Shown here: piece by piece, positions 5,889 to 16,283 of the stretch | Layout of the letters: every line of letters begins with the position of its first letter | Position numbering within the stretch: the stretch's first letter is position 1 | Assembly: GCA_002729175.1 (NCBI GenBank) | Contig: PBTS01000017.1 | Span: 1 to 24,665, forward strand | Length of the DNA: 24,665 bases | Source of the DNA: Fidelibacterota bacterium | GTDB taxonomy: Bacteria; Fidelibacterota; Marinisomatia; Marinisomatales; S15-B10 | Direction of reading: 5' to 3' | The notes under the pieces: model-generated | The model's input: the letters and a program-made list of their open reading frames with translations, nothing else | Told to the model about the DNA's origin: nothing | Database searches by the model: none | Position numbers and translations under genes: made by a program

Positions 5889-6686
5889 ATGAGGGTAATG
5901 GGAAGATTACTGCTTTTCTTTTCTTTTTGTTTTGGTGCATTCGATCGCCAGCCCCTTTTACCTCTTCAGATCGCCGGCGGGACAGTTTTCCAGTCTTTAG
6001 GAACAACTGGTAATTTTTTCAGTGATCCTGCTTCGCTCCTCAAGGTTGGCGGCATTGTATCCGTGATAACGTCTAAACCGTTCAGAATTGTCTCATTGTC
6101 AGACAGATCCTTCATGGTTTCCTACCCTTCAGCCTATGGGAATCTGGGATTTTCTGTCCAGACGTCCGGTCTTTCAATTTATCGTGAAACGACAGTCGCC
6201 GCAGCAGCAGCTCGGAGATTCGGTGAAAGTCTGAATGCTGGGCTGCGCCTCTCCGTTCATCAGATCGATATTAAAAATTATGGGGCTCAGACAGTTCTTT
6301 CCCTGTCAGGCTCTTTGTTTTATCCCCTTTCAGAAACCGTCAGCTGGAGCCTTTTGGGATTCAATCTCAACGGGCCTCGTCTGGGTCAGTCACAAGAACC
6401 GCTCCCACAAATTCTCGCCACCGGTTTCAGGTACTTACCGGCGGGGCCACTTCAGGCACTTATCGAAATTGAGAAAGATCTCGCTCACCGGCCGCGGCAA
6501 AAGTTTGGTGTCGTTTGGGAAACTACATCATGGCTTACACTTGCTACAGGTTATGCTAACAATCCGGACCAGGCAAGTTTTGGCTTTTCACTACAGCTTT
6601 CACAAATCACCGTTGACTATGCAATCGCTTCACATCTCCATCTTCCTGAAACGCACACTCTGGCTATTCATTTTCGCCTCCCTTGA
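5889..6686 (+). CDS. Putative outer-membrane beta-barrel protein (PorV/PorQ/FadL-like style)
   Basis: N-terminal signal-like segment, an FSDPASL motif resembling the NPAxL of this barrel class, amphipathic strands (GFGFS-type, TVDYAI) and a terminal strand LAIHFRLP. Confidence 0.6.
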   Translation: MRVMGRLLLFFSFCFGAFDRQPLLPLQIAGGTVFQSLGTTGNFFSDPASLLKVGGIVSVITSKPFRIVSLSDRSFMVSYPSAYGNLGFSVQTSGLSIYRETTVAAAAARRFGESLNAGLRLSVHQIDIKNYGAQTVLSLSGSLFYPLSETVSWSLLGFNLNGPRLGQSQEPLPQILATGFRYLPAGPLQALIEIEKDLAHRPRQKFGVVWETTSWLTLATGYANNPDQASFGFSLQLSQITVDYAIASHLHLPETHTLAIHFRLP

Positions 6687-8484
6687 ACTGACCTCTACTG
6701 AGGCGCAAACCCTGGAGGATATTCTATCCACCCTTGTTGTGGATGAGGAAGAAAATGTTCTTTCTATGGAAGAACTGGAAATGCTGGAAAGCCTCGTTCG
6801 CCAGCCTGTTAACCTGAACAACGCCGGAAAAAGGCGGCTGGAGATGATCCCACTCTTTACGCTGGCTGACATTCAATTGATCCTGGCTGAACGGCGAAAA
6901 AAAGGAAAGTTTCAGTATGTTGACGAAGTGGCCGAAATCTCCGGCTTATCACTCATTGCGCAACAGTTACTTCCCCTTATTGCCACGGTGGAACGAGTGG
7001 GACCTGTTTCAATGGCTTTTAGAAACAGGTGGGCCACTTCCAATGAAGATTATCGTTTGCTGAACCGCGCTCTGTTTGTCGTTGGCGAGACCTCCGGTGG
7101 GATTGTTGTAGAGAGGGATCCCCTTGAACCGACCCTGGCCGATTTTATCTCAGCCCACACCAAATTTAAGACAAGGCAAGGCGTGGAAGTAATTGTAGGT
7201 GACCACAGGGTAGAATCAGGCTACGGCCTGGTTTTCGGACGAATCTCCCGTCCAATGAAGGGCGGTTGGCAGGTCACTTCAGTCTCCCGGGCAGGGCGAG
7301 GACTCCGTTCCTACCAATCTTCATCAGAGTATTGGGGACTCCGAGGCCTCGGTCTGCGGACTGAGAATTCTTTTGGCCGATGGACAGCTTCCGTCTCATC
7401 TTCACCTGCCGATGCCATTATAAAAGAAGACCAGGTAGTGTCCGTACAGCGAAGCGGTCTTCACAGCTCAGCAACTTCAATGGCCCGAAAGCACAATATC
7501 CGGGAAGAGATTCTCCTCTTAAACTGGGAGTCGACATTCAGCAACGGTCAAATCGGTGCAACGGCCGTTACAAACGGCTGGCAAATTCCCTCTGCTAATC
7601 GACAGTTTGAAGAAAGTTATCTTTCTCAGTACGGTGATGTGCCTCTCTTGAGCGGTTCACTGTTTTGGGAAGCCGCTACAACACCTGAGGGTAAAAGTGC
7701 CTGGCTCGGCGGTGTAACTCAAAACACACGTTCTGTCAGATGGATCTCCATGCTAAGGCATTACCCCGAAGAATGGCACACTCCGAGAAGTACCCCTTTT
7801 AGTGAATGGAGCGACAATGAGCTGAATGAGACAGGCATCTATCAGGCTATGGTGCTACGTGTAGGACAGTTACGGATTTCTTCCTACGGTGACCTGTATC
7901 GTGAATACATGGCTGATGAGACAGGTCAACAACCTATAGTCGGCGCTGAGACGGCCGTCATGGCCGATTACCGATGGCGGGGAGGGAAAAATGTTGTGTT
8001 CAAATGGAAAAGCGAAGAGAAAAGTCTGGAAGATAGACTTTACTTTCCTAAGGAGACTATCGCCCCCAGGAAGATGCGGCAGGCTACCCGTCTCCAGGGC
8101 AATACGAAGCTGGGTCGCACCATAAGAATCCGTCTGCAAGTGGACCATGTTGGATCAGAAGATAGCCACGGGCAAAATGACGGCAACAGTCTTTCCTTCA
8201 CGGGAGCGTGGGATACCAAACAGCACCACCTCTCTTTTCAATGGATCGTCTTCAATACATCAGATTACTCTTCCAGGGTTTATGTTTGGGGCCTTAACCT
8301 CCCTGGCGAGATGAGAAACTACGCCTATTACGGAAATGGGCACTCTGCTACATTGCGCTACCGGTTCTTGACCGTTACCGGTACGTCTGTCTCTTTTCGA
8401 GCACGAAGCTCTTGGGAGAATGAAAACGGTAAATGGAGCCCTCCCCGGTGGGAAGGCGGGTTCCAGATGGACCTAACTCTCTGA
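6619..8484 (+). CDS. ComEA-like helix-hairpin-helix domain protein fused to a probable outer-membrane beta-barrel
   Basis: Likely start is ATG 6619 (MQSLHISIFLKRTLWLFIFAS...AQ, signal-peptide-like). It has an HhH domain PVNLNNAGKRRLEMIP...ERRKKGKFQYVDEVAEISGLS, a GDHRVESGYGLV motif, a beta-rich body and the terminal strand GGFQMDLTL. Confidence 0.75.
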   Translation: MQSLHISIFLKRTLWLFIFASLELTSTEAQTLEDILSTLVVDEEENVLSMEELEMLESLVRQPVNLNNAGKRRLEMIPLFTLADIQLILAERRKKGKFQYVDEVAEISGLSLIAQQLLPLIATVERVGPVSMAFRNRWATSNEDYRLLNRALFVVGETSGGIVVERDPLEPTLADFISAHTKFKTRQGVEVIVGDHRVESGYGLVFGRISRPMKGGWQVTSVSRAGRGLRSYQSSSEYWGLRGLGLRTENSFGRWTASVSSSPADAIIKEDQVVSVQRSGLHSSATSMARKHNIREEILLLNWESTFSNGQIGATAVTNGWQIPSANRQFEESYLSQYGDVPLLSGSLFWEAATTPEGKSAWLGGVTQNTRSVRWISMLRHYPEEWHTPRSTPFSEWSDNELNETGIYQAMVLRVGQLRISSYGDLYREYMADETGQQPIVGAETAVMADYRWRGGKNVVFKWKSEEKSLEDRLYFPKETIAPRKMRQATRLQGNTKLGRTIRIRLQVDHVGSEDSHGQNDGNSLSFTGAWDTKQHHLSFQWIVFNTSDYSSRVYVWGLNLPGEMRNYAYYGNGHSATLRYRFLTVTGTSVSFRARSSWENENGKWSPPRWEGGFQMDLTL

Positions 8485-8645: not shown

Positions 8646-10136
8646 GTGATCCGAAGTAAGCTAATCATCACGTTAGGCATGATGCTGGCGGGCGTGTTGA
8701 GCGCAAGCACAGTATCCGTCTATTACCCCAACGATCCCGACAAGCGGGAGTCCATCAAGACCTTTGATACGGGTAACACAACCTATATTTCCGGCGCAGA
8801 TTTCGTACGTGTGCTCGATGCCGGTATTTTTAGCAATATAGCAAGAGGAAAGATTGTCATTTACTTCGGAGGTCACAGGATCAAAGTCTCCGCCCACAGC
8901 AGTTTCGTTGTGATAGATGATCATGTTTACCAGATGCCGTCCTACGCCCTTTCCGATGGTTCGGACATTTACCTCCCCATGCGGCCGTTCATAGCTATCC
9001 TCCACCGCCACGCCGCGCCGGGAGTCAGTTATGACACCGGCCTCAACAGTGTGGTGGTTGAGCTCATTACTCACAATATCAAGGATTTGAGTATTGAGGA
9101 AAAAGCCAACGGAACTGTCATCCGCCTAGCGTCAACTCGCCAGTTTGAGGATGGCTCACTTACCGGCTGGTCAGCGCAAAACAGATGGTTTTATCTCACT
9201 GTATCAGGCGGCATTGCCGATTCCGTCGCACTGCGGAAGGCAAAGTTGGGCGGTATCGTCCGAGGTATAACCGTTGATCAGACAGGTCGTTCAGTTCAAG
9301 TTGCGTTTCAGCTTAGAACTGAAATCGAGAACTTTGAAATCTATCAAAATAATGCCCCCAACGAGATTGTGCTGACACTGAGAACTCCCTTAAGCTACAG
9401 CGCCGAAAAAATCAAAAAACTGAGAGACGCCTGGTACATTGACACAATTGTCATAGATGCAGGTCACGGCGGGAAAGACCCCGGGACTACGGGCAAGTAT
9501 GGCCTGAGAGAAAAATTCGTCACACTTGATATTGCCAAGCGCCTCGGGAAGCTCATTGAGAAAAATACAAATGCAAAAGTAGTCTACACCAGAGACGAGG
9601 ACGTATTTATTCCTCTATGGGAGCGGACTAAGGTCGCAAATGAAAGTAACGGAAAGCTCTTTATCAGTATTCATGCTAACGCTAACAATAACAGACGTAT
9701 TAAAGGATTTGAAACATATATTTTGAGGCCAGGAAAAACAGCTGACGCTGTGGAAGTGGCTGAGCGTGAAAACAGTGCCATCAAACTTGAGGAGGAAGCA
9801 TCCCGGTACGATCACCTGACAGAAGACAGCTTTATCATTGCATCTCTAATGCAAAATGCCTTCATGAAAGAGAGTGAAGATCTGGCCGCTATGGTCCAGT
9901 CGGAATTGCGGAAAAGCATTCCCTCACCCGATCGTGGTGTGAAACAGGCTGGATTTTATGTTCTTATTGGCGCTTCTATGCCTCATGCGCTACTGGAAGT
10001 AGGTTACCTTTCAAATCCCCTTGAAGAAAAGCAACTCCGCAAGCCCGGTTACAGGCAGAGTATCGCACAAGCCACGTTCAACGGCCTCCGCAGCTTCAAG
10101 GACAAATATGAGCGCGTCCTAGCAGAAGAAGGCTAG
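8646..10136 (+). CDS. N-acetylmuramoyl-L-alanine amidase (Amidase_3, AmiC-like) with signal peptide and N-terminal targeting domains
   Basis: Zn motifs IDAGHGGKDPG, LREK, FISIHAN and LLEVGYLSN, plus VAERENS and RGVKQAGFYVL. Confidence 0.95.
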   Translation: MIRSKLIITLGMMLAGVLSASTVSVYYPNDPDKRESIKTFDTGNTTYISGADFVRVLDAGIFSNIARGKIVIYFGGHRIKVSAHSSFVVIDDHVYQMPSYALSDGSDIYLPMRPFIAILHRHAAPGVSYDTGLNSVVVELITHNIKDLSIEEKANGTVIRLASTRQFEDGSLTGWSAQNRWFYLTVSGGIADSVALRKAKLGGIVRGITVDQTGRSVQVAFQLRTEIENFEIYQNNAPNEIVLTLRTPLSYSAEKIKKLRDAWYIDTIVIDAGHGGKDPGTTGKYGLREKFVTLDIAKRLGKLIEKNTNAKVVYTRDEDVFIPLWERTKVANESNGKLFISIHANANNNRRIKGFETYILRPGKTADAVEVAERENSAIKLEEEASRYDHLTEDSFIIASLMQNAFMKESEDLAAMVQSELRKSIPSPDRGVKQAGFYVLIGASMPHALLEVGYLSNPLEEKQLRKPGYRQSIAQATFNGLRSFKDKYERVLAEEG

Positions 10137-10171
10137 GCCCTTTTCAGGCGTCTCGTCACCCAAGCTCCATC

Positions 10172-11446
10172 TTGTCTACTCTCGATAAAGCAACATTAGA
10201 TTATCTCTATTCTCTGCGGCGAAGGGGAATCAAGATAGGACTTCACCGTACAGAAATTTTACTGAAGCGGTGCGAAAATCCTCATCACAACCTCCCTGTC
10301 ATTCATATTGCAGGGACCAACGGAAAAGGGTCCACTGCTGTCATGACCGCTTCCATTCTCAGAGCAACGGGTCGGAAAGTGGGGCTCTACACATCTCCTC
10401 ACCTGGTGAGGTTCAATGAAAGAATTCGGGTCGGAGGAATCCCCATCCCCGATGAGTGGATTGTATCATTCCTGAAAAAATATCGTGTTGAGATTGACAC
10501 CCTCGGCTCCACCTTCTTTGAAACCACTACCGCCATAATGTTTAGCTACTTCGCTCATGAGGCGGTTGATATTGCAGTGGTAGAAGTTGGCATGGGCGGA
10601 CGGCTCGATTCCAGTAACGTTTCGGAATCTGTTGTTTCGGTACTTACTCCCATAGATTTTGACCATATGGAATTTCTCGGTGGTGATCTCCCATCTATTG
10701 CCAGGGAAAAGTGCGGAATATTTAAAAGGGACGTGCCGGTGGTAACGGCTCCTCAATACGAGAAAGTGATGTCTGTCATCAAATCATCCTCAAAAGAAAA
10801 GGGGTGTCCTCTCTTTTTGATATCAGAGGTGTGTCCAGTCACCGAAGCTATTCAAAAACCCGACGGTAGTCGTTTCGCCGTCGGCGAAACATCAATAGAT
10901 CTCCCTCTGTTTGGCAAACATCAGGTGATAAATGCACAGACCGCCATAGCGGCGTGTAGCCTCTTTGATCCCAAGATCGACGATGATGTTATAAAAACAG
11001 GACTGACAAAAGTTGTATGGCCAGGGAGACTTCAAAAACTAAGTGGTAATCCATTAGCTTATTATGATGTGGGACATAACCCTCACGGTATAAGCACCGC
11101 AGTCCGATCTCTGAGAGAGATTTTCCCCAAAGCTAATTTTGGCGCAGTTTGCGGATTCAAGAAAAATAAGGACCTCGACAGCATCACAACTGTGCTAAAA
11201 CAATATTTCAATCAGATCATCACTATTCAACCGAGCCACGCCGAATTTCACTCTGCCGAAACAGTAGCTTCTTTTTTGAAAAAAGTGGGTATTCCTGCTG
11301 AAGCTTGTCAATCTGTTACTGAAGGTCTTAGGCGGTGCAAAGCGGGAAATGAGAGCTTGGACCTGTGGTTAATTTTCGGTACACACTTTATAGCGGAGGA
11401 TGTATTCAGCTTTTTTCATTTTCCCTTTGACAAAGGCGAGATTTAG
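10172..11446 (+). CDS. folC: Bifunctional folylpolyglutamate/dihydrofolate synthase, TTG start
   Basis: HIAGTNGKGS, YTSPHL..FNERI, EVGMGGRLDSSN, IAREKCGI, WPGRLQ and DVGHN. Confidence 0.96.
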   Translation: MSTLDKATLDYLYSLRRRGIKIGLHRTEILLKRCENPHHNLPVIHIAGTNGKGSTAVMTASILRATGRKVGLYTSPHLVRFNERIRVGGIPIPDEWIVSFLKKYRVEIDTLGSTFFETTTAIMFSYFAHEAVDIAVVEVGMGGRLDSSNVSESVVSVLTPIDFDHMEFLGGDLPSIAREKCGIFKRDVPVVTAPQYEKVMSVIKSSSKEKGCPLFLISEVCPVTEAIQKPDGSRFAVGETSIDLPLFGKHQVINAQTAIAACSLFDPKIDDDVIKTGLTKVVWPGRLQKLSGNPLAYYDVGHNPHGISTAVRSLREIFPKANFGAVCGFKKNKDLDSITTVLKQYFNQIITIQPSHAEFHSAETVASFLKKVGIPAEACQSVTEGLRRCKAGNESLDLWLIFGTHFIAEDVFSFFHFPFDKGEI

Positions 11447-11454
11447 TCTAAATT
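11427..11454 (+). promoter_or_regulatory. Putative sigma70 promoter of rho, TTGACA-N16-TAAATT, overlapping the folC 3' end
   Basis: Consensus -35 at 11427-11432 and -10 at 11449-11454, about 90 nt upstream of the rho ATG. Confidence 0.65.
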
Positions 11455-11544
11455 GAAATAGAGGCTGCCTTTTTTCAAGGTCTTTATAACTGCCTGATTC
11501 ATAGAATCTCAGTAATTCTAACAATTAATTAACGATTTATTCCC

Positions 11545-12792
11545 ATGGATGTAACACAGTTACAGGGCCAGAAGATCAAGGACTTAACCAAGCTCGCTCA
11601 AGAGATGGAAGTCCCCGGTTATTCCGGTCTGAAAAAACAGGAATTGATCATGCGCATTCTCGAGACCAGTGCCGAGAAAGAGGGGAAACTGTTTGCTTCT
11701 GGTGTTCTCGAAGTGATGCAGGAGGGGTACGGTTTCTTGCGATCGCAGGATTATAATTACCTCCCGGGGCCAGATGACATTTACGTCTCCCCTTCCCAGA
11801 TAAAAAGGTTCAATCTCCGCACAGGTCATCAGGTGGCTGGACAGATACGCCATCCCAAAGATAACGAACGTTTCTACGCCCTACTTAAAGTTGAAACGGT
11901 GAACGGCGAGGGACCGGATCAAGTCAAAAAAGCCATTCTGTTTGACAACCTCACACCACTCTACCCTGAGGAGCGAATAAAGCTTGAAGGGAAGCCGAAA
12001 GGATTTTCTATGCGGATACTTGATCTTATGTCACCTATCGGCAAAGGTCAGAGAGGACTAATTGTCGCCCAACCAAAGACAGGTAAAACAATTCTTCTAC
12101 AAAAAATTGCCAATACAACGCTTGAGAACCATCCTGAAGTTAAAATTATTGTGCTGCTCATTGCGGAGCGGCCGGAAGAAGTGACAGATATGGAGAGAAG
12201 CGTTGATGCAGAAGTGGTAAGCTCCACTTTTGATGAACCGCCAGAACGGCACGTTCAAGTGGCGGACATGGCTTTGGAAAAGGCCAAACGGATGGTAGAG
12301 TACGGCCATGATGTGATGATACTTCTTGACAGTATCACCCGCCTCGGCCGTGCACACAATGCGATAATCCCTCACAGCGGAAAAATCCTTTCAGGTGGTG
12401 TAGATGCCAATGCGCTTCACCGTCCCAGACGCCTCTTCGGAGCAGCCCGGAACACCGAAGAAGGAGGAAGTCTCACAATTATTGCAACAGCACTCATTGA
12501 TACGGGCAGTAGAATGGATGATGTCATTTTTGAAGAGTTTAAGGGTACCGGTAATATGGAACTCGTTCTAGACCGCCGCCTCAGTGACCGTCGCCTGTTC
12601 CCCTCCTTTGACCTTATACGTTCAGGGACACGGAAAGAAGAACTGTTACTTTCCAAAAAAGAACTTGCAAGAGTTTGGATTCTTAGAAAGATTTTAAATG
12701 ACATGACACCCATAGAAGCAATGGAGTTTCTCCTCGATAGAATGAAGCGGACAGAAAATAACGAAGAATTTTTGGATACGATGAATAATTAA
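11545..12792 (+). CDS. rho: Transcription termination factor Rho (415 aa, no large N-terminal insertion)
   Basis: [47 protein letters not shown] and [13 protein letters not shown]. Confidence 0.99.
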
Positions 12793-12799
12793 TCAATGT

Positions 12800-13708
12800 T
12801 TGTCAGTATACCGTCTTGTGTCTAAGGATCAATCTTATATAAAGTCAGTCGTAGTTCGCCTCTCCACCGATAAACCTGTTAGAAAAACGTCTTATCAGGT
12901 TAAGGGCGTTCTCATGAAAGAATTTCCGGACAATCCCATCATCCCATTTATCAACGGCTCTTACCGCAATAACTATCTGTATCCCCGAGTCCAAGTTAAG
13001 ATACTCAATGAACAGATTTATCTCATTGGAATCAAGGAAGGTGTTGAGCCCATTGAGTCCCTTGCTGAAAAACTGGACATTATGAACTTCGGCAATATCA
13101 CTTTCAAGGTCGAGGATGTGGTCACTGAAGTGAGCGATGATGGTTTGGGATCAACCGATAAGACAATCCAGTACAAATTTCTCACTCCGTGGATCGCCCT
13201 CAACCAGATTAATCTGAAACGCTATAAAGCGTTAACAGACAAAGATCGCTTAATACTGCTAAGACGTCTGCTGAGTCAAAATATCGCTTTCGTTGGAAAG
13301 GAGGTCGATCTCGCACTAGAAGAAAGAATTTTCGTAGATCTCAATCTGGAATCACTCCAGGCCAACTTGATGGATGAAGGAAAAATGGGCTGTTTTAACG
13401 GTGAATTCAGAACCAACTTTATTTTGCCAAACTTTATCGGCTTAGGAAACGGAATTACCAAGGGTTACGGTGTGCTCTTCAGTCAATTCAATTCGGCGGA
13501 CTTTTCCTCTGAAGAAACAGAACTGGCAAACAGCCAGTCTGACAATCAAGAAGTAGTGGGAGAATTGCCCGAAGGTTGGGAGGATGAAGCCATTGATCCG
13601 AATGACATCCCTCGAAGTAAACGGCTCAAAAAAACAGACACAGACAAAGAGCAAGAGACGGAAGGTCCTAACTTCAACACTGCCAAATATCACTCCAAGA
13701 CGCATTGA
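12800..13708 (+). CDS. cas6: Cas6b-family (RAMP) endoribonuclease-like protein, orphan, with a charged C-terminal extension; start is TTG 12800 or GTG 12818
   Basis: Cas6b-type motifs in order: YLYPRVQVK, LIGIKEG, GSTDKTIQYKFLTPWIALNQ, LRRLLSQNI, FNGEFRTNFILP and the G-rich loop IGLGNGITKGYG. Confidence 0.88.
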   Translation: MSVYRLVSKDQSYIKSVVVRLSTDKPVRKTSYQVKGVLMKEFPDNPIIPFINGSYRNNYLYPRVQVKILNEQIYLIGIKEGVEPIESLAEKLDIMNFGNITFKVEDVVTEVSDDGLGSTDKTIQYKFLTPWIALNQINLKRYKALTDKDRLILLRRLLSQNIAFVGKEVDLALEERIFVDLNLESLQANLMDEGKMGCFNGEFRTNFILPNFIGLGNGITKGYGVLFSQFNSADFSSEETELANSQSDNQEVVGELPEGWEDEAIDPNDIPRSKRLKKTDTDKEQETEGPNFNTAKYHSKTH

Positions 13709-13723
13709 TCTCGGCCAATCATT

Positions 13724-14908
13724 ATGATTGCTGAAAGAGTCCAGCGGATTCAGCCGTCTTTCACTTTGGAGATGACAGCGCGGGCCGCTGATTTAAGGAA
13801 TAACGGTGTAGATGTGATTGACCTTGGCGTCGGTGAACCCGATTTCAACACACCTGAAAATATCCGCCAAGCGGCCATCCGCGCCATGGCTGACGGTCAT
13901 ACAAAGTACACACCTGGAAGAGGAACACTTGAACTTCGCGAAGCGATATGTAAAAAACTGGAGCGCGACAATAATCTAGATTATACCCCAGATCAGATCA
14001 TTGTTTCAAACGGTGCCAAGCATTCCCTCAGCACTCTCTGTCAGGCTGCATTAAACCCGGGAGATGAAGTCATTGTCTTTGCACCCTACTGGGTTTCTTT
14101 TCCTGAATTTATCCGGCTGGCAGATGGAGAACCTGTCATCGTAAAAACTAGGACCGAGGACAATTTTTCTCCTGACTGGAATGATCTTGAATCAAAAGTC
14201 ACACCTAAGATTTCCGCAATAATTATTAACTCGCCTTCCAACCCGACGGGAGCAGTCTGGGACAAAGAAACAGTTACAAGGCTTCTTAAACTTGCCGCCA
14301 AACACGATTGGCTGGTGATCTCTGACGAATGCTACGAATTCCTCGTATATGATGCACCCTTCACAAGCACGGAGGTCTTAAATGAAGTAGGAGCCAATGT
14401 GGTAACGATTCAGAGTTTATCCAAGACTTACGCCATGACTGGATGGCGGATCGGATACGCGGCGGGAGATGCTGCAATCGTCAGCGCTATGGCGAAAATC
14501 CAGGGGCAGGCAACATCTTGCCCCAACTCAATTGCACAAAAAGCGGCCGTGGAGGCACTCACTGGTGATCAGACTGAAATTGAAACCATGCGCAATATTT
14601 TTGTGGAACGTCGGGATGCAATGATTAACCGCCTCAACACTGTTCCCAACTTTTCCTGCACCAAACCAGGGGGCGCATTCTATGCATTCCCCAATGTGAG
14701 TCACTACATAGGCCTAGCCGCTGATGGGAAGATAATCGACAGTTCTTTCGCCTTGAGTGATTATATTTTAGACTGTGCCAAGACGGTGACTGTAGCCGGT
14801 TCCGGCTTCGGATCAGAGGGCTACATTAGGCTCTCGTACGCCACCGACGAGTCAGTTTTTTTGGAAGGCATCAACAAGCTTGAAAAAGCGTTAAGTAATC
14901 TGAATTAG
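13724..14908 (+). CDS. Class I PLP-dependent aminotransferase (aspartate aminotransferase, subgroup Ib)
   Basis: GVGEPDF, NSPSNPTG, SDECYE, the PLP-lysine motif SLSKTYAMTGWRIGY, GAFY and IRLSYA. Confidence 0.95.
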   Translation: MIAERVQRIQPSFTLEMTARAADLRNNGVDVIDLGVGEPDFNTPENIRQAAIRAMADGHTKYTPGRGTLELREAICKKLERDNNLDYTPDQIIVSNGAKHSLSTLCQAALNPGDEVIVFAPYWVSFPEFIRLADGEPVIVKTRTEDNFSPDWNDLESKVTPKISAIIINSPSNPTGAVWDKETVTRLLKLAAKHDWLVISDECYEFLVYDAPFTSTEVLNEVGANVVTIQSLSKTYAMTGWRIGYAAGDAAIVSAMAKIQGQATSCPNSIAQKAAVEALTGDQTEIETMRNIFVERRDAMINRLNTVPNFSCTKPGGAFYAFPNVSHYIGLAADGKIIDSSFALSDYILDCAKTVTVAGSGFGSEGYIRLSYATDESVFLEGINKLEKALSNLN

Positions 14909-14917
14909 AGGAATAAA

Positions 14918-15136
14918 ATGAAAACTGGGATTCATCCTGAATATACGCTCGGTACAGTGACCTGCGCATGTGGAAACAGATTCCAAGTGCGAAGTACCGT
15001 GGGCGATATGCGAGTGGAAATCTGCTCCGCATGCCACCCATTTTTCTCCGGTCAGCAAAAACTGGTTGACACCGCCGGCCGTATCGAAAAATTCAAAAAG
15101 AAATATGGAAAGCTGAACGCCAAAGGCGAACAGTAA
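14918..15136 (+). CDS. rpmE: 50S ribosomal protein L31 (Zn-binding type A)
   Basis: [21 protein letters not shown] and DTAGRIEKF, with an SD-like GAGGA upstream. Confidence 0.98.
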
Positions 15137-15148
15137 CCAAACAAACAC

Positions 15149-15196
15149 AACGGTTTCTAGCGTCATCGGATAGAGATGGCCGGGAACCGTTTTTTT
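15149..15196 (+). terminator. Long hairpin plus U-tract (intrinsic terminator or attenuator) between rpmE and prfA
   Basis: AACGGTTTCT-AGC-GTCATC pairs with GATGGC-C-GGGAACCGTT around the loop GGATAGA, followed by T7 (15190-15196). Confidence 0.75.
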
Positions 15197-15212
15197 ATGC
15201 CCGAGAACTTCT

Positions 15213-16283
15213 ATGAAAGATAAAGTCAAACAGATCATTGAAAGATACGAAACTGTTACTGAACAGCTAGCTAAACCAGAAATTGCGTCTGATCCGGATA
15301 GATACCGCGACCTGGCGAAAGAACATCACGATCTGGACCCTGTAGCCAAAAAAGGGAGCGAGTATATCAATATAACGGATCAAATTGATGAAGATGAAGC
15401 TGTTCTGAAAGGTGACGATGAAGAATTGAAAGAACTAGTTCAAGAGGAGATTGAAGGATTAAGAGACGAAGCCCTGAAGCTGGAAGAAGAACTAAAGGTC
15501 CTTCTGCTACCTAAAGATCCACTGGATGAAAAAAATACCATCATGGAGATCCGGGCTGGCACGGGCGGTGAAGAAGCAGCCCTTTTTGCAGCTGATCTTT
15601 ATCGCATGTATGGCCATTTTGCGGAGCAAAACGGATGGGACATCAAACTGATTGCGGCAAATGTAACGGGAAACGGCGGTTACAAAGAGGTGATCTGCGC
15701 CTTCAAAGGTGACACTATTTTTGGTAAACTGAAATATGAGGGGGGCGTACATCGGGTGCAGCGTGTTCCCGCAACAGAGGCCAGCGGGCGCATCCACACA
15801 TCTGCCGCTACTGTCGCCGTCCTGCCGGAAGCTGATGAGGTCGATATTAAAATCAATACACAAGACTTGCGTATCGATACCTTTCGGGCGTCAGGAGCAG
15901 GTGGCCAGCATGTGAATAAGACAGAGTCAGCTATCAGGATTACTCACATTCCCACCGATACAGTGGTCACCTGTCAGGATGAAAAATCTCAGCACAAAAA
16001 TCGCGTGGCGGCAATGAAAGTTTTAAGATCCCGCCTTCTGGCTCGTGAGCGGAAAAAACAGCAGTCAGAGCGAGCGGAGGCAAGAAAAACCATGGTGTCC
16101 ACAGGAGATCGGAGTGCAAAGATCCGAACTTACAATTTTCCTCAAGGGCGAGTGACAGATCACCGCATAGAATTGACCCTTTACAAACTTGAGGAGATTA
16201 TGAACGGTGACCTCACCGAGCTCATCGAACAACTGAAAATTGCTGATCAGTTAGAGCAGTTAAAAGCGGAAAATCTCAGTTGA
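15213..16283 (+). CDS. prfA: Peptide chain release factor 1
   Basis: [11 protein letters not shown], the PxT motif [14 protein letters not shown] and [15 protein letters not shown]. Confidence 0.99.

Follow-up and report, generated by a model that had tools for sequence, protein, structure and literature searches.

A solitary gene of the Cas6b family, located directly behind the gene for the transcription termination factor Rho in a bacterium of the Marinimicrobia/SAR406 (Fidelibacterota) lineage, on balance probably encodes an exapted, non-cleaving RNA-binding protein that is co-expressed with rho and acts in cellular RNA metabolism. The gene, for which the name cas6L is coined here, lies on a contig of 24,665 nt (PBTS01000017.1, assembly GCA_002729175.1) from a metagenome-assembled genome (MAG); this contig, taken over its whole length, is called the window below. 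An earlier note on this DNA had described a Cas6b-like open reading frame (ORF) that is separated from rho by 7 nt and from the aminotransferase gene that follows it by 15 nt, and the coordinates bear this out. The TTG start codon follows 7 nt past the rho stop codon (TAA, 12790-12792), the cas6L stop codon occupies 13706-13708, and a gap of 15 nt separates it from the aminotransferase ATG at 13724. The translation contains all the motifs quoted in that note (YLYPRVQVK, YKFLTPWIALNQ, FNGEFRTNF and GLGNGITKGYG). Since the genes of same-family relatives begin about six codons downstream of the window TTG, translation may in truth begin at the GTG (12818) and not at the TTG (12800).

The assignment of cas6L to the Cas6b family can be regarded as secure, as the profile and structure matches are far beyond chance. 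Both Pfam domains were found well above their cut-offs (Cas6b_N, E = 8.9e-12, 45.5 bits, cut-off 25; Cas6b_C, E = 9.9e-28, 97.1 bits, cut-off 39.4), the Cas6 match in PADLOC had an E value of 2.7e-46, and phmmer aligned the protein with the Cas6b of PDB entry 4z7k at E = 2.1e-25. A scan of the protein against NCBIfam gave no match, and a look-up in the ESM Atlas returned generic Cas6b clusters only. The AlphaFold2 model, built with 25 homologues, has a mean predicted local distance difference test score (pLDDT) of 85 and a predicted template modelling (TM) score of 0.81, with core residues 16-230 mostly above 90. Foldseek placed Cas6b of M. maripaludis first among PDB structures (4z7k_A, E = 8.8e-18, target-normalised TM score 0.80, 28% identity), followed by type IV, Thermus and Pyrococcus Cas6 enzymes. 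Pfam, AlphaFold2 and Foldseek agree on the two-domain architecture (Cas6b_N plus Cas6b_C, i.e. ferredoxin-like/RRM folds in tandem) that is typical of Cas6b, and the C-terminal glycine-rich loop of the family is present as well, minus the K/R residue at position 217. The Cas6b identity and the RAMP fold proposed in the earlier note have thus stood up to both profile and structure searches.

The set of relatives used for comparison consisted of 41 genomes (including G000, the genome of the window); they are incomplete MAGs, hence a gene is reported as not found rather than as absent. In this set, cas6L was found in 39 of 41 genomes, and both misses belong to family f12. Cas1 was found in 8/41 relatives, all of them also cas6L-positive, and in none of the 15 genomes of the window's own family, so that 31 of the 39 cas6L-positive relatives gave no Cas1 match. 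A wider sample of 151 genomes of the phylum was positive in 55 cases with a single-protein query and in 56 with a 25-row profile, counts that include ordinary type I-B cas6b genes. With the profile, full-length copies of the rho-linked group scored at least 226 bits, the truncated copy of G076 scored 176, and the canonical group did not exceed 164. The sources of the homologues label them as proteins of Marinimicrobia, Neomarinimicrobiota or Fidelibacterota MAGs, usually under the name "CRISPR-associated endonuclease Cas6"; this NCBI label probably misleads those who survey marine metagenomes for CRISPR. According to NCBI, a protein of the cultured Fidelibacter multiformis shares a 90% cluster with one of the rho-linked representatives, which makes the question accessible to bench work.

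Gene neighbourhoods were compared in 41 loci, in which the window genes were mapped by tblastn. In 35 of these, rho lies directly upstream of the cas6 homologue and on the same strand (20/20 loci of the window's own order, representing 16 families, as well as L003 and 14 of 20 others), and in all 35 the first start codon lies -4 to 114 nt from the rho stop. The aminotransferase gene is not the next gene in eight of them (L016, L018, L024, L028, L039, L040, L049, L055), and the gene for folylpolyglutamate synthase (FPGS) is not upstream in several; as these flanking genes vary while rho and cas6L stay together, the pair outlasts its flanks. A gene that is patchy and out of synteny among relatives, which the earlier note had named as an outcome contrary to its proposal, is not what was found, and the synteny holds in relatives that for the most part lack Cas1. 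The remaining six loci carry copies with the canonical His-Asn-His (HNH) motif. Four of these (L047, L051, L052, L054) are located beside cas8b, cas7b, cas5b and cas3, with cas1, cas2 and cas4 also present in L052 and L054 and repeat arrays detected by the array script in L047 and L054; the other two loci (L045, L050) are cut by contig ends. Among the proteins encoded beside canonical cas6b, those at L050:358-876 and L051:7483-8619 match the PADLOC candidate-defence families PDC-S05 and PDC-S02, respectively, the latter also PD_DExK. Throughout the 41 loci, "rho-linked" and "His-less" coincide without exception, although these loci are kin and not independent samples.

The rho-cas6L spacers of several loci (L021, L023, L025, L026, L027 and L003) contain GAGGTG/AGGTGTAGCA words that precede the cas6L start by 5-8 nt and occur twice in L025 and L026. 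The AGGTGTAGCA word was considered as a target motif and rejected, being read as a Shine-Dalgarno-like ribosome-binding site; none is present in the 7-nt spacer of the window.

A quick maximum-likelihood tree of 150 rows with at least 170 core residues, whose root is untested, is divided by one branch into 98 and 52 rows (support of 98 in the Shimodaira-Hasegawa-like approximate likelihood ratio test, SH-aLRT). The 98-row side holds all 82 H-x-H representatives, all eight one-His representatives, all six copies from type I-B loci and two His-less representatives; the 52-row side holds all 31 rho-linked sequences together with 21 His-less representatives. Where the organism is named, the His-less representatives come from Marinimicrobia/Fidelibacterota, apart from one MAG labelled Lentisphaeria. 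If the root lies on the canonical side, this topology implies a single origin of the rho-linked group. Distances between cas6L cores were correlated with Rho distances over 25 genomes (Mantel r = 0.76, a value reached in none of 2,000 permutations). The divergence of cas6L accordingly tracks that of Rho, which bears on the question of the earlier note whether the cas6 tree follows the species tree, and cas6L evolves faster (mean p-distance 0.62 versus 0.27 for Rho).

Parts of the stretch are contained in 19 RNA-library runs from ten studies, and four runs (four studies) were mapped. One contig of 4,287 nt (X1 record 4) extends over 11181-15467, that is, over rho, cas6L, the aminotransferase gene, rpmE and the start of prfA, and a 14-kb contig (X3 record 15) extends over 10000-14562. 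In X7, record 19 bridges rho and cas6L (12553-12958) and record 20 bridges cas6L and the aminotransferase gene (12929-14150); in X10, positions 12782-13423 are covered by no contig, a gap to which no weight is given. No terminator-like site was found on the plus strand between 11750 and prfA. Contigs of two of these data sets start at the same position upstream of rho (11469; Table 1), which hints weakly at transcripts beginning there. A promoter-like site ends 15 nt before it, a consensus match that in itself is no evidence of function, and TTGACA and TAA(A/T)TT words occur at the same place 5' of rho across the order (L016-L034). Some of this conservation may stem from protein coding, as the stretch also encodes F-P-F-D-K-G of FPGS.

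A function tied specifically to Rho would be a sub-case of the reading given at the outset: cas6L could act as a sequence-specific RNA adaptor or anti-adaptor, or in feedback on the mRNA of the rho operon. This idea, attractive but more unlikely than likely, draws on rho-cas6L being the most persistent adjacency of the locus (35/35 His-less loci, including the eight without an adjacent aminotransferase gene and several without FPGS upstream), on the short gaps, on the divergence correlated with that of Rho and on the RNA-library contigs that cross the junction. However, this support is one of gene order, the correlation with Rho is equally expected from plain vertical inheritance, and lineages in which cas6L was not found keep a similar Rho (61-73% identity in 5/5 genomes checked). 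Rho-associated termination or antitermination factors include NusG, Rof/YaeO, Psu and Hfq acting on Rho; no likeness of cas6L to any of these appeared in the Pfam or Foldseek results. Prediction of a complex of Rho and cas6L, with a 25-row alignment for each, gave scores of 0.07 and 0.03 against a mark of 0.32, which is no evidence either way. A more definite version, in which cas6L reads a short RNA signature without cutting it and, via its core (and via an added C-terminal tail in the marine order), recruits or excludes Rho, must be considered doubtful.

One feature that sets cas6L apart from canonical Cas6b enzymes is the active site. Passages of Richter et al. 2012 (PMC3479195) describe alanine substitutions in M. 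maripaludis Cas6b: with H38A and H40A combined, most cleavage is lost, and either mutation by itself leaves a considerable part of the activity. In the phmmer alignment to 4z7k, these catalytic histidines correspond to P49 and I51 of cas6L, and Tyr47 and Tyr49 correspond to Y59 and Y61; the histidine pair that characterizes Cas6b is therefore missing in the window protein. A MAFFT alignment of 155 sequences allowed the comparison of residue classes between 96 canonical and 31 rho-linked sequences (the rho-linked L003, L033, L035 (N-derived X), L038 (truncated) and L049 were left out of it). Histidine is present in 95% of the canonical sequences at position 49 and in 97% at position 51, K/R in 93% at position 192 and in 95% at position 217 (in the glycine-rich loop; N in the window protein), and S/T in 94% at position 164, whereas the corresponding residues are found in 0% of the rho-linked sequences at all these positions, with position 164 being aromatic in 94% of them. 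None of the 31 aligned rho-linked sequences has His at either catalytic column, and inspection by eye of the five sequences left out revealed no His at either catalytic position. Two of these five (L033 and L035, from genomes G007 and G011 of one genus) read P-H-I, with His at the middle position, which is neither of the catalytic ones. The HNH motif is present in all six phylum copies without rho linkage, and H-[NQH]-H in most database representatives.

Other parts of the protein are kept. The rho-linked sequences retain K35, K67, R150, K221 (K/R at this position in 100%), the glycines of the loop and the aromatic core; G216, G222 and G224 are invariant, and the 25-sequence alignment contains no invariant His, Lys, Arg, Asp, Glu or Ser. 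The pattern looks less like decay than like a directed change that reshaped the active site together with part of the RNA surface, and the cleavage activity of cas6L has likely been lost. This loss is likely and not proven, because a Cas6 of S. solfataricus that lacks the canonical His does cut RNA; according to PMC3652601, no single residue is essential in that enzyme. Active sites of Cas6 enzymes are plastic, and cas6L could accordingly still cut as an endoribonuclease whose active site has been rebuilt, its substrate being a cellular RNA other than CRISPR RNA, e.g. the precursor of a stable RNA or an operon mRNA. The considerable activity of the single His mutants of M. maripaludis Cas6b is in line with this, as is the conservation of the equivalents of Tyr47 and Tyr49 in most rho-linked sequences (aromatic at position 59 in 77%, at position 61 in 94%). 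We nevertheless consider continued nuclease activity unlikely, given that both histidines are missing in 31/31 sequences, that the basic residues at positions 192 and 217 are gone too, and that no invariant polar or charged residue is available among the 25 sequences to stand in for them. The earlier note had suggested that the protein "binds or processes" cellular RNA; its Cas6b-family part holds, and the loss of both catalytic histidines speaks against "processes".

The genome offers no CRISPR context for cas6L. Its assembly comprises 87 contigs that add up to 1.83 Mb, at 93% completeness and 7.1% contamination. No CRISPR array was detected in the 87 contigs by a k-mer chain script, the sole candidate of which (contig C57, 9050-9400) was rejected as a protein-coding tandem repeat of ~72 nt with units like NGDKYVGEWK, which we take to be MORN-like. 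Cas1 (PF01867) had no match in the assembly, the same search being positive in 7/14 control genomes, and tblastn with 16 type I-B Cas proteins of relatives matched cas6L alone. An array or cas operon, as expected in the genome of a Cas6b owner, was thus not found in this 93%-complete assembly, a completeness at which absence is not proven. Scans of 20 further large ORFs in the window assigned them to housekeeping Pfam families or to no family. There is no cas gene and no transposase among them, as the earlier note had stated for the surroundings of the gene. A second Cas6b_C match in the assembly (contig C1, locus L003) was rejected as a paralogue, since it belongs to the same syntenic block of another lineage that was co-binned. 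This contig (C1/L003, 1-19001, with many N) carries a second block with the order amidase-FPGS-rho-cas6L(348 aa)-aminotransferase-prfA-prmC-dnaE, and the cas6L encoded there shares 48% identity with the window copy and is almost the same as the one in G022 (family f9). The contig appears to come from another family and to have entered the MAG during binning (contamination as given above).

Because the searches for an array, for Cas1 and for type I-B genes were negative and both catalytic histidines are replaced, cas6L is not a working CRISPR part. The description of the gene as an orphan Cas6 therefore withstood the scan of the whole genome, which also revealed no CRISPR locus lacking its own cas6. 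Cas6 enzymes are able to serve distant arrays, and arrays often remain unassembled, so that at 93% completeness and 7% contamination an in-trans role of cas6L in the maturation of CRISPR RNA (crRNA) from an array elsewhere in the genome is conceivable; it is nevertheless highly improbable in view of the missing CRISPR genes, of the 31/39 cas6L-positive relatives without Cas1 and of the lost histidines. Furthermore, five genomes (G031, G034, G051, G054, G062) have a second, lower-scoring copy away from rho. Both copies that were read (G031, G034) keep HNH, and that of G034 is located in a type I-B operon. Because these two second copies keep HNH, cas6L is no stand-in for a missing cas6b; in genomes with a type I-B operon, it exists alongside a separate, intact cas6b.

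The gene is under purifying selection. In a pairwise comparison with G002, a genome of the same genus (dS about 0.5; 0.48 for cas6L), the ratio of nonsynonymous to synonymous divergence (dN/dS) was 0.16 for the whole of cas6L, 0.10 for its core and 0.42 for its tail, compared to 0.07 for rho and 0.11 for the aminotransferase gene. The frame is intact, without internal stops, in 39/39 cas6L-positive relatives, and invariant fold residues persist across sequences that are only 23-30% identical. A decaying or neutral remnant in a conserved operon, as might be suspected from several losses and from an evolution more than twice as fast as that of Rho, is barely credible next to these data and to the conserved tail motif gained in an order-level clade.

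This tail, which follows the core in the order-level clade that includes the present genome and is limited to it, adds 60-130 residues. The model gives it a pLDDT of 40-65, except for residues 251-270 with 83-87. Three short motifs are conserved: F/Y-N-P-x-x-F-x-F-D-E right behind the core, E-(D/E)-(V/I)-P-(K/R)-(S/P)-(R/K)-R in mid-tail, and [FY]N...[YF]H.[KR].[HL] at the protein end, which in the window protein reads PNFNTAKYHSKTH. The terminal motif is present in 24 of the 28 homologues of at least 270 aa, with a near-variant in L018 and P0122 and unrelated ends in P0121 and P0129; of the 9,892 stop-to-stop frames of this assembly, the two cas6L frames alone carry it. That short motifs are conserved within a disordered tail suggests that the tail docks to a partner.

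Taken together, cas6L would have descended from the type I-B crRNA endoribonuclease Cas6b, would have left CRISPR early in the Marinimicrobia/SAR406 lineage and would have been fixed as the gene right after rho. The protein may still bind specific single-stranded or weakly structured RNA, like Cas6b, holding it instead of cutting it. Expressed from one operon together with Rho, it would most likely be an accessory RNA-binding factor acting on cellular transcripts; particular RNAs could be marked, shielded or chaperoned by it, perhaps with the effect of keeping Rho off them or bringing Rho on. In the order-level clade, the tail with its three motifs probably docks cas6L to a partner.

Several observations weigh against the proposed role in cellular RNA metabolism. 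No RNA partner was found by the Rfam scan of the window (0 families at the gathering score), by the search for CRISPR-repeat-like sequences in the genome or by comparison of the rho leaders. The 37-38-nt type I-B repeats of L054 and L047 gave chance-level matches of 10-15 nt in the own genome, plus matches of 18 and 21 nt with mismatches (best E value 0.14). The rho leader, a candidate target of cas6L, was rejected as such: it is not conserved in sequence across the order, and the 110 nt 5' of rho in 19 loci are not alike and share the promoter-like words only. RNA-library contigs can hold DNA, a contig with two genes does not equal a single transcript, and their depth provides no ranking of genes. 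The block amidase-FPGS-rho-cas6L-aminotransferase-rpmE-prfA-prmC is syntenic and functionally mixed, and cas6L may have come to lie next to rho by chance in the history of the locus. The His-less S. solfataricus enzyme that still cleaves belongs here as well. Finally, cas6L was found in none of the seven sampled genomes of family f12 (genomes of ~1 Mb) and was not found in several other families. Three loci without it (L057, L059 and L060; two of f12, one of f17) represent clean losses, in which the block is kept and rho is followed directly by the aminotransferase gene; two other genomes have a different context. Because some lineages with reduced genomes (~1 Mb) have cleanly deleted the gene, cas6L is accessory and not essential. 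The earlier idea of a domesticated, non-immune Cas6 in a rho operon is thus supported by the orphan state, the conserved synteny and the Rho-tracking divergence, yet it has to be restricted: the gene is not universal, with 56/151 positive genomes in the phylum sample and the clean losses just described.

The gene order of the window is amidase, FPGS, rho, cas6L, aminotransferase, rpmE, prfA, prmC, a UbiA-family prenyltransferase gene, dnaE and others (for coordinates, see Table 1). Rho proteins encoded in the loci of relatives are 69-94% identical to that of the window. 5' of the amidase gene (5889-8484), two overlapping ORFs on the plus strand (265 aa and 749 aa) match no Pfam family at E = 1e-5. 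A further promoter-like sequence, TCGACA-17-GATTAT, is located at 14736-14764 inside the 3' part of the aminotransferase gene, and an X7 contig with an adapter before it starts at 14784; possibly there is an internal start for rpmE-prfA near this position.

Table 1. Features of cas6L and its surroundings in the window (PBTS01000017.1)
Feature	Position	Strand	Basis or remark
Promoter-like TTGACA-16-TAAATT	11427..11454	+	Consensus scan 10/12; overlaps FPGS 3' end and stop
RNA-library contig start	11469	+	X7 record 17, X10 record 8; adapter directly before it in X7; 76 nt before rho ATG
rho, transcription termination factor, 415 aa	11545..12792	+	Pfam Rho_N, Rho_RNA_bind, ATP-synt_ab
cas6L, Cas6b-derived gene	12800..13708	+	Open frame of 302 aa, TTG start; alternative GTG at 12818
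Cas6b_N domain, residues 14-105	12839..13114	+	Pfam PF17955; model pLDDT >88 throughout
Codons P49-F50-I51, in place of catalytic H38-N39-H40 of canonical Cas6b	12944..12952	+	phmmer alignment to 4z7k
Cas6b_C domain, residues 118-226	13151..13477	+	Pfam PF17262
Glycine-rich loop GLGNGITKGYG, residues 214-224	13439..13471	+	G216, G222, G224 invariant in 25 rho-linked sequences
C-terminal tail, 72 aa (18 D/E, 8 K/R)	13490..13705	+	Mostly low model confidence; short conserved motifs
Tail motif 3, protein end ([FY]N...[YF]H.[KR].[HL])	13667..13705	+	Conservation among homologues
Class I/II aminotransferase, 394 aa	13724..14908	+	Pfam Aminotran_1_2, E = 1e-79
Presumably rpmE (ribosomal protein L31), 72 aa	14918..15136	+	ORF; named by resemblance to L31-like ORF of L057
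prfA, peptide chain release factor 1	15213..16283	+	Pfam PCRF, RF-1

Cas proteins that work outside immunity are mostly known as nuclease-dead effector complexes, as in transposon-associated systems and array-less modules. A lone Cas6 that has long been passed on vertically as a housekeeping gene next to rho would, if true, represent a different route of exaptation. If cas6L binds a defined RNA without cutting it, it would be a natural, compact, sequence-specific RNA-binding module, and if it modulates Rho, a new kind of termination factor. SAR406 bacteria are among the abundant groups of the dark ocean; were the RNA-adaptor version true, an abundant ocean phylum would possess gene-specific termination control derived from a part of an immune system. 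A literature search revealed no paper on a rho-linked or housekeeping Cas6, with subscription journals mostly outside its coverage; the species description of F. multiformis does not mention Cas6, CRISPR, Rho or termination. A solo Cas6 beside rho is not described in the Cas6 passages of a 2022 review on CRISPR exaptation (PMC8730458).

Among known systems, the closest in fold is Cas6b of M. maripaludis (PDB 4z7k/4z7l), which shares with cas6L the two-domain fold (PF17955 and PF17262), the glycine-rich loop and the aromatic residues Y125, W131, F199 and F203. However, cas6L has neither the catalytic histidines, nor K/R at positions 192 and 217, nor an array or cas operon; instead, it lies behind rho, is vertically inherited and carries a tail. 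The canonical cas6b genes of the phylum (L047, L051, L052, L054) belong to the same family, and their proteins are 25-31% identical to the window protein, but they keep HNH and their cas neighbours, have no tail and are placed on the other side of the branch with SH-aLRT 98. The P. horikoshii Cas6 homologue (PDB 3qjj, "One RAMP protein binding different RNA substrates") was matched by Foldseek (3qjj_B, E = 7.3e-06); it is a member of a different Cas6 subfamily (14% identity) and has no link to rho. This protein reportedly binds repeat RNA without cleaving it, and its genome is said to contain CRISPR arrays. Cas6 of S. solfataricus (Sso1437) resembles cas6L in lacking the canonical His, and its authors emphasize RNA recognition and a chaperone-like activity (PMC3652601); unlike cas6L, which is without CRISPR context, it belongs to a CRISPR system and actively processes crRNA. 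Finally, the derived type I-E module with a STAND NTPase in Streptomyces likewise contains Cas RAMP proteins without an array or adaptation genes (passages of PMC8730458). This module, as portrayed there, consists of multiple genes and is a predicted defence effector, whereas cas6L is a single Cas6 in a housekeeping operon.

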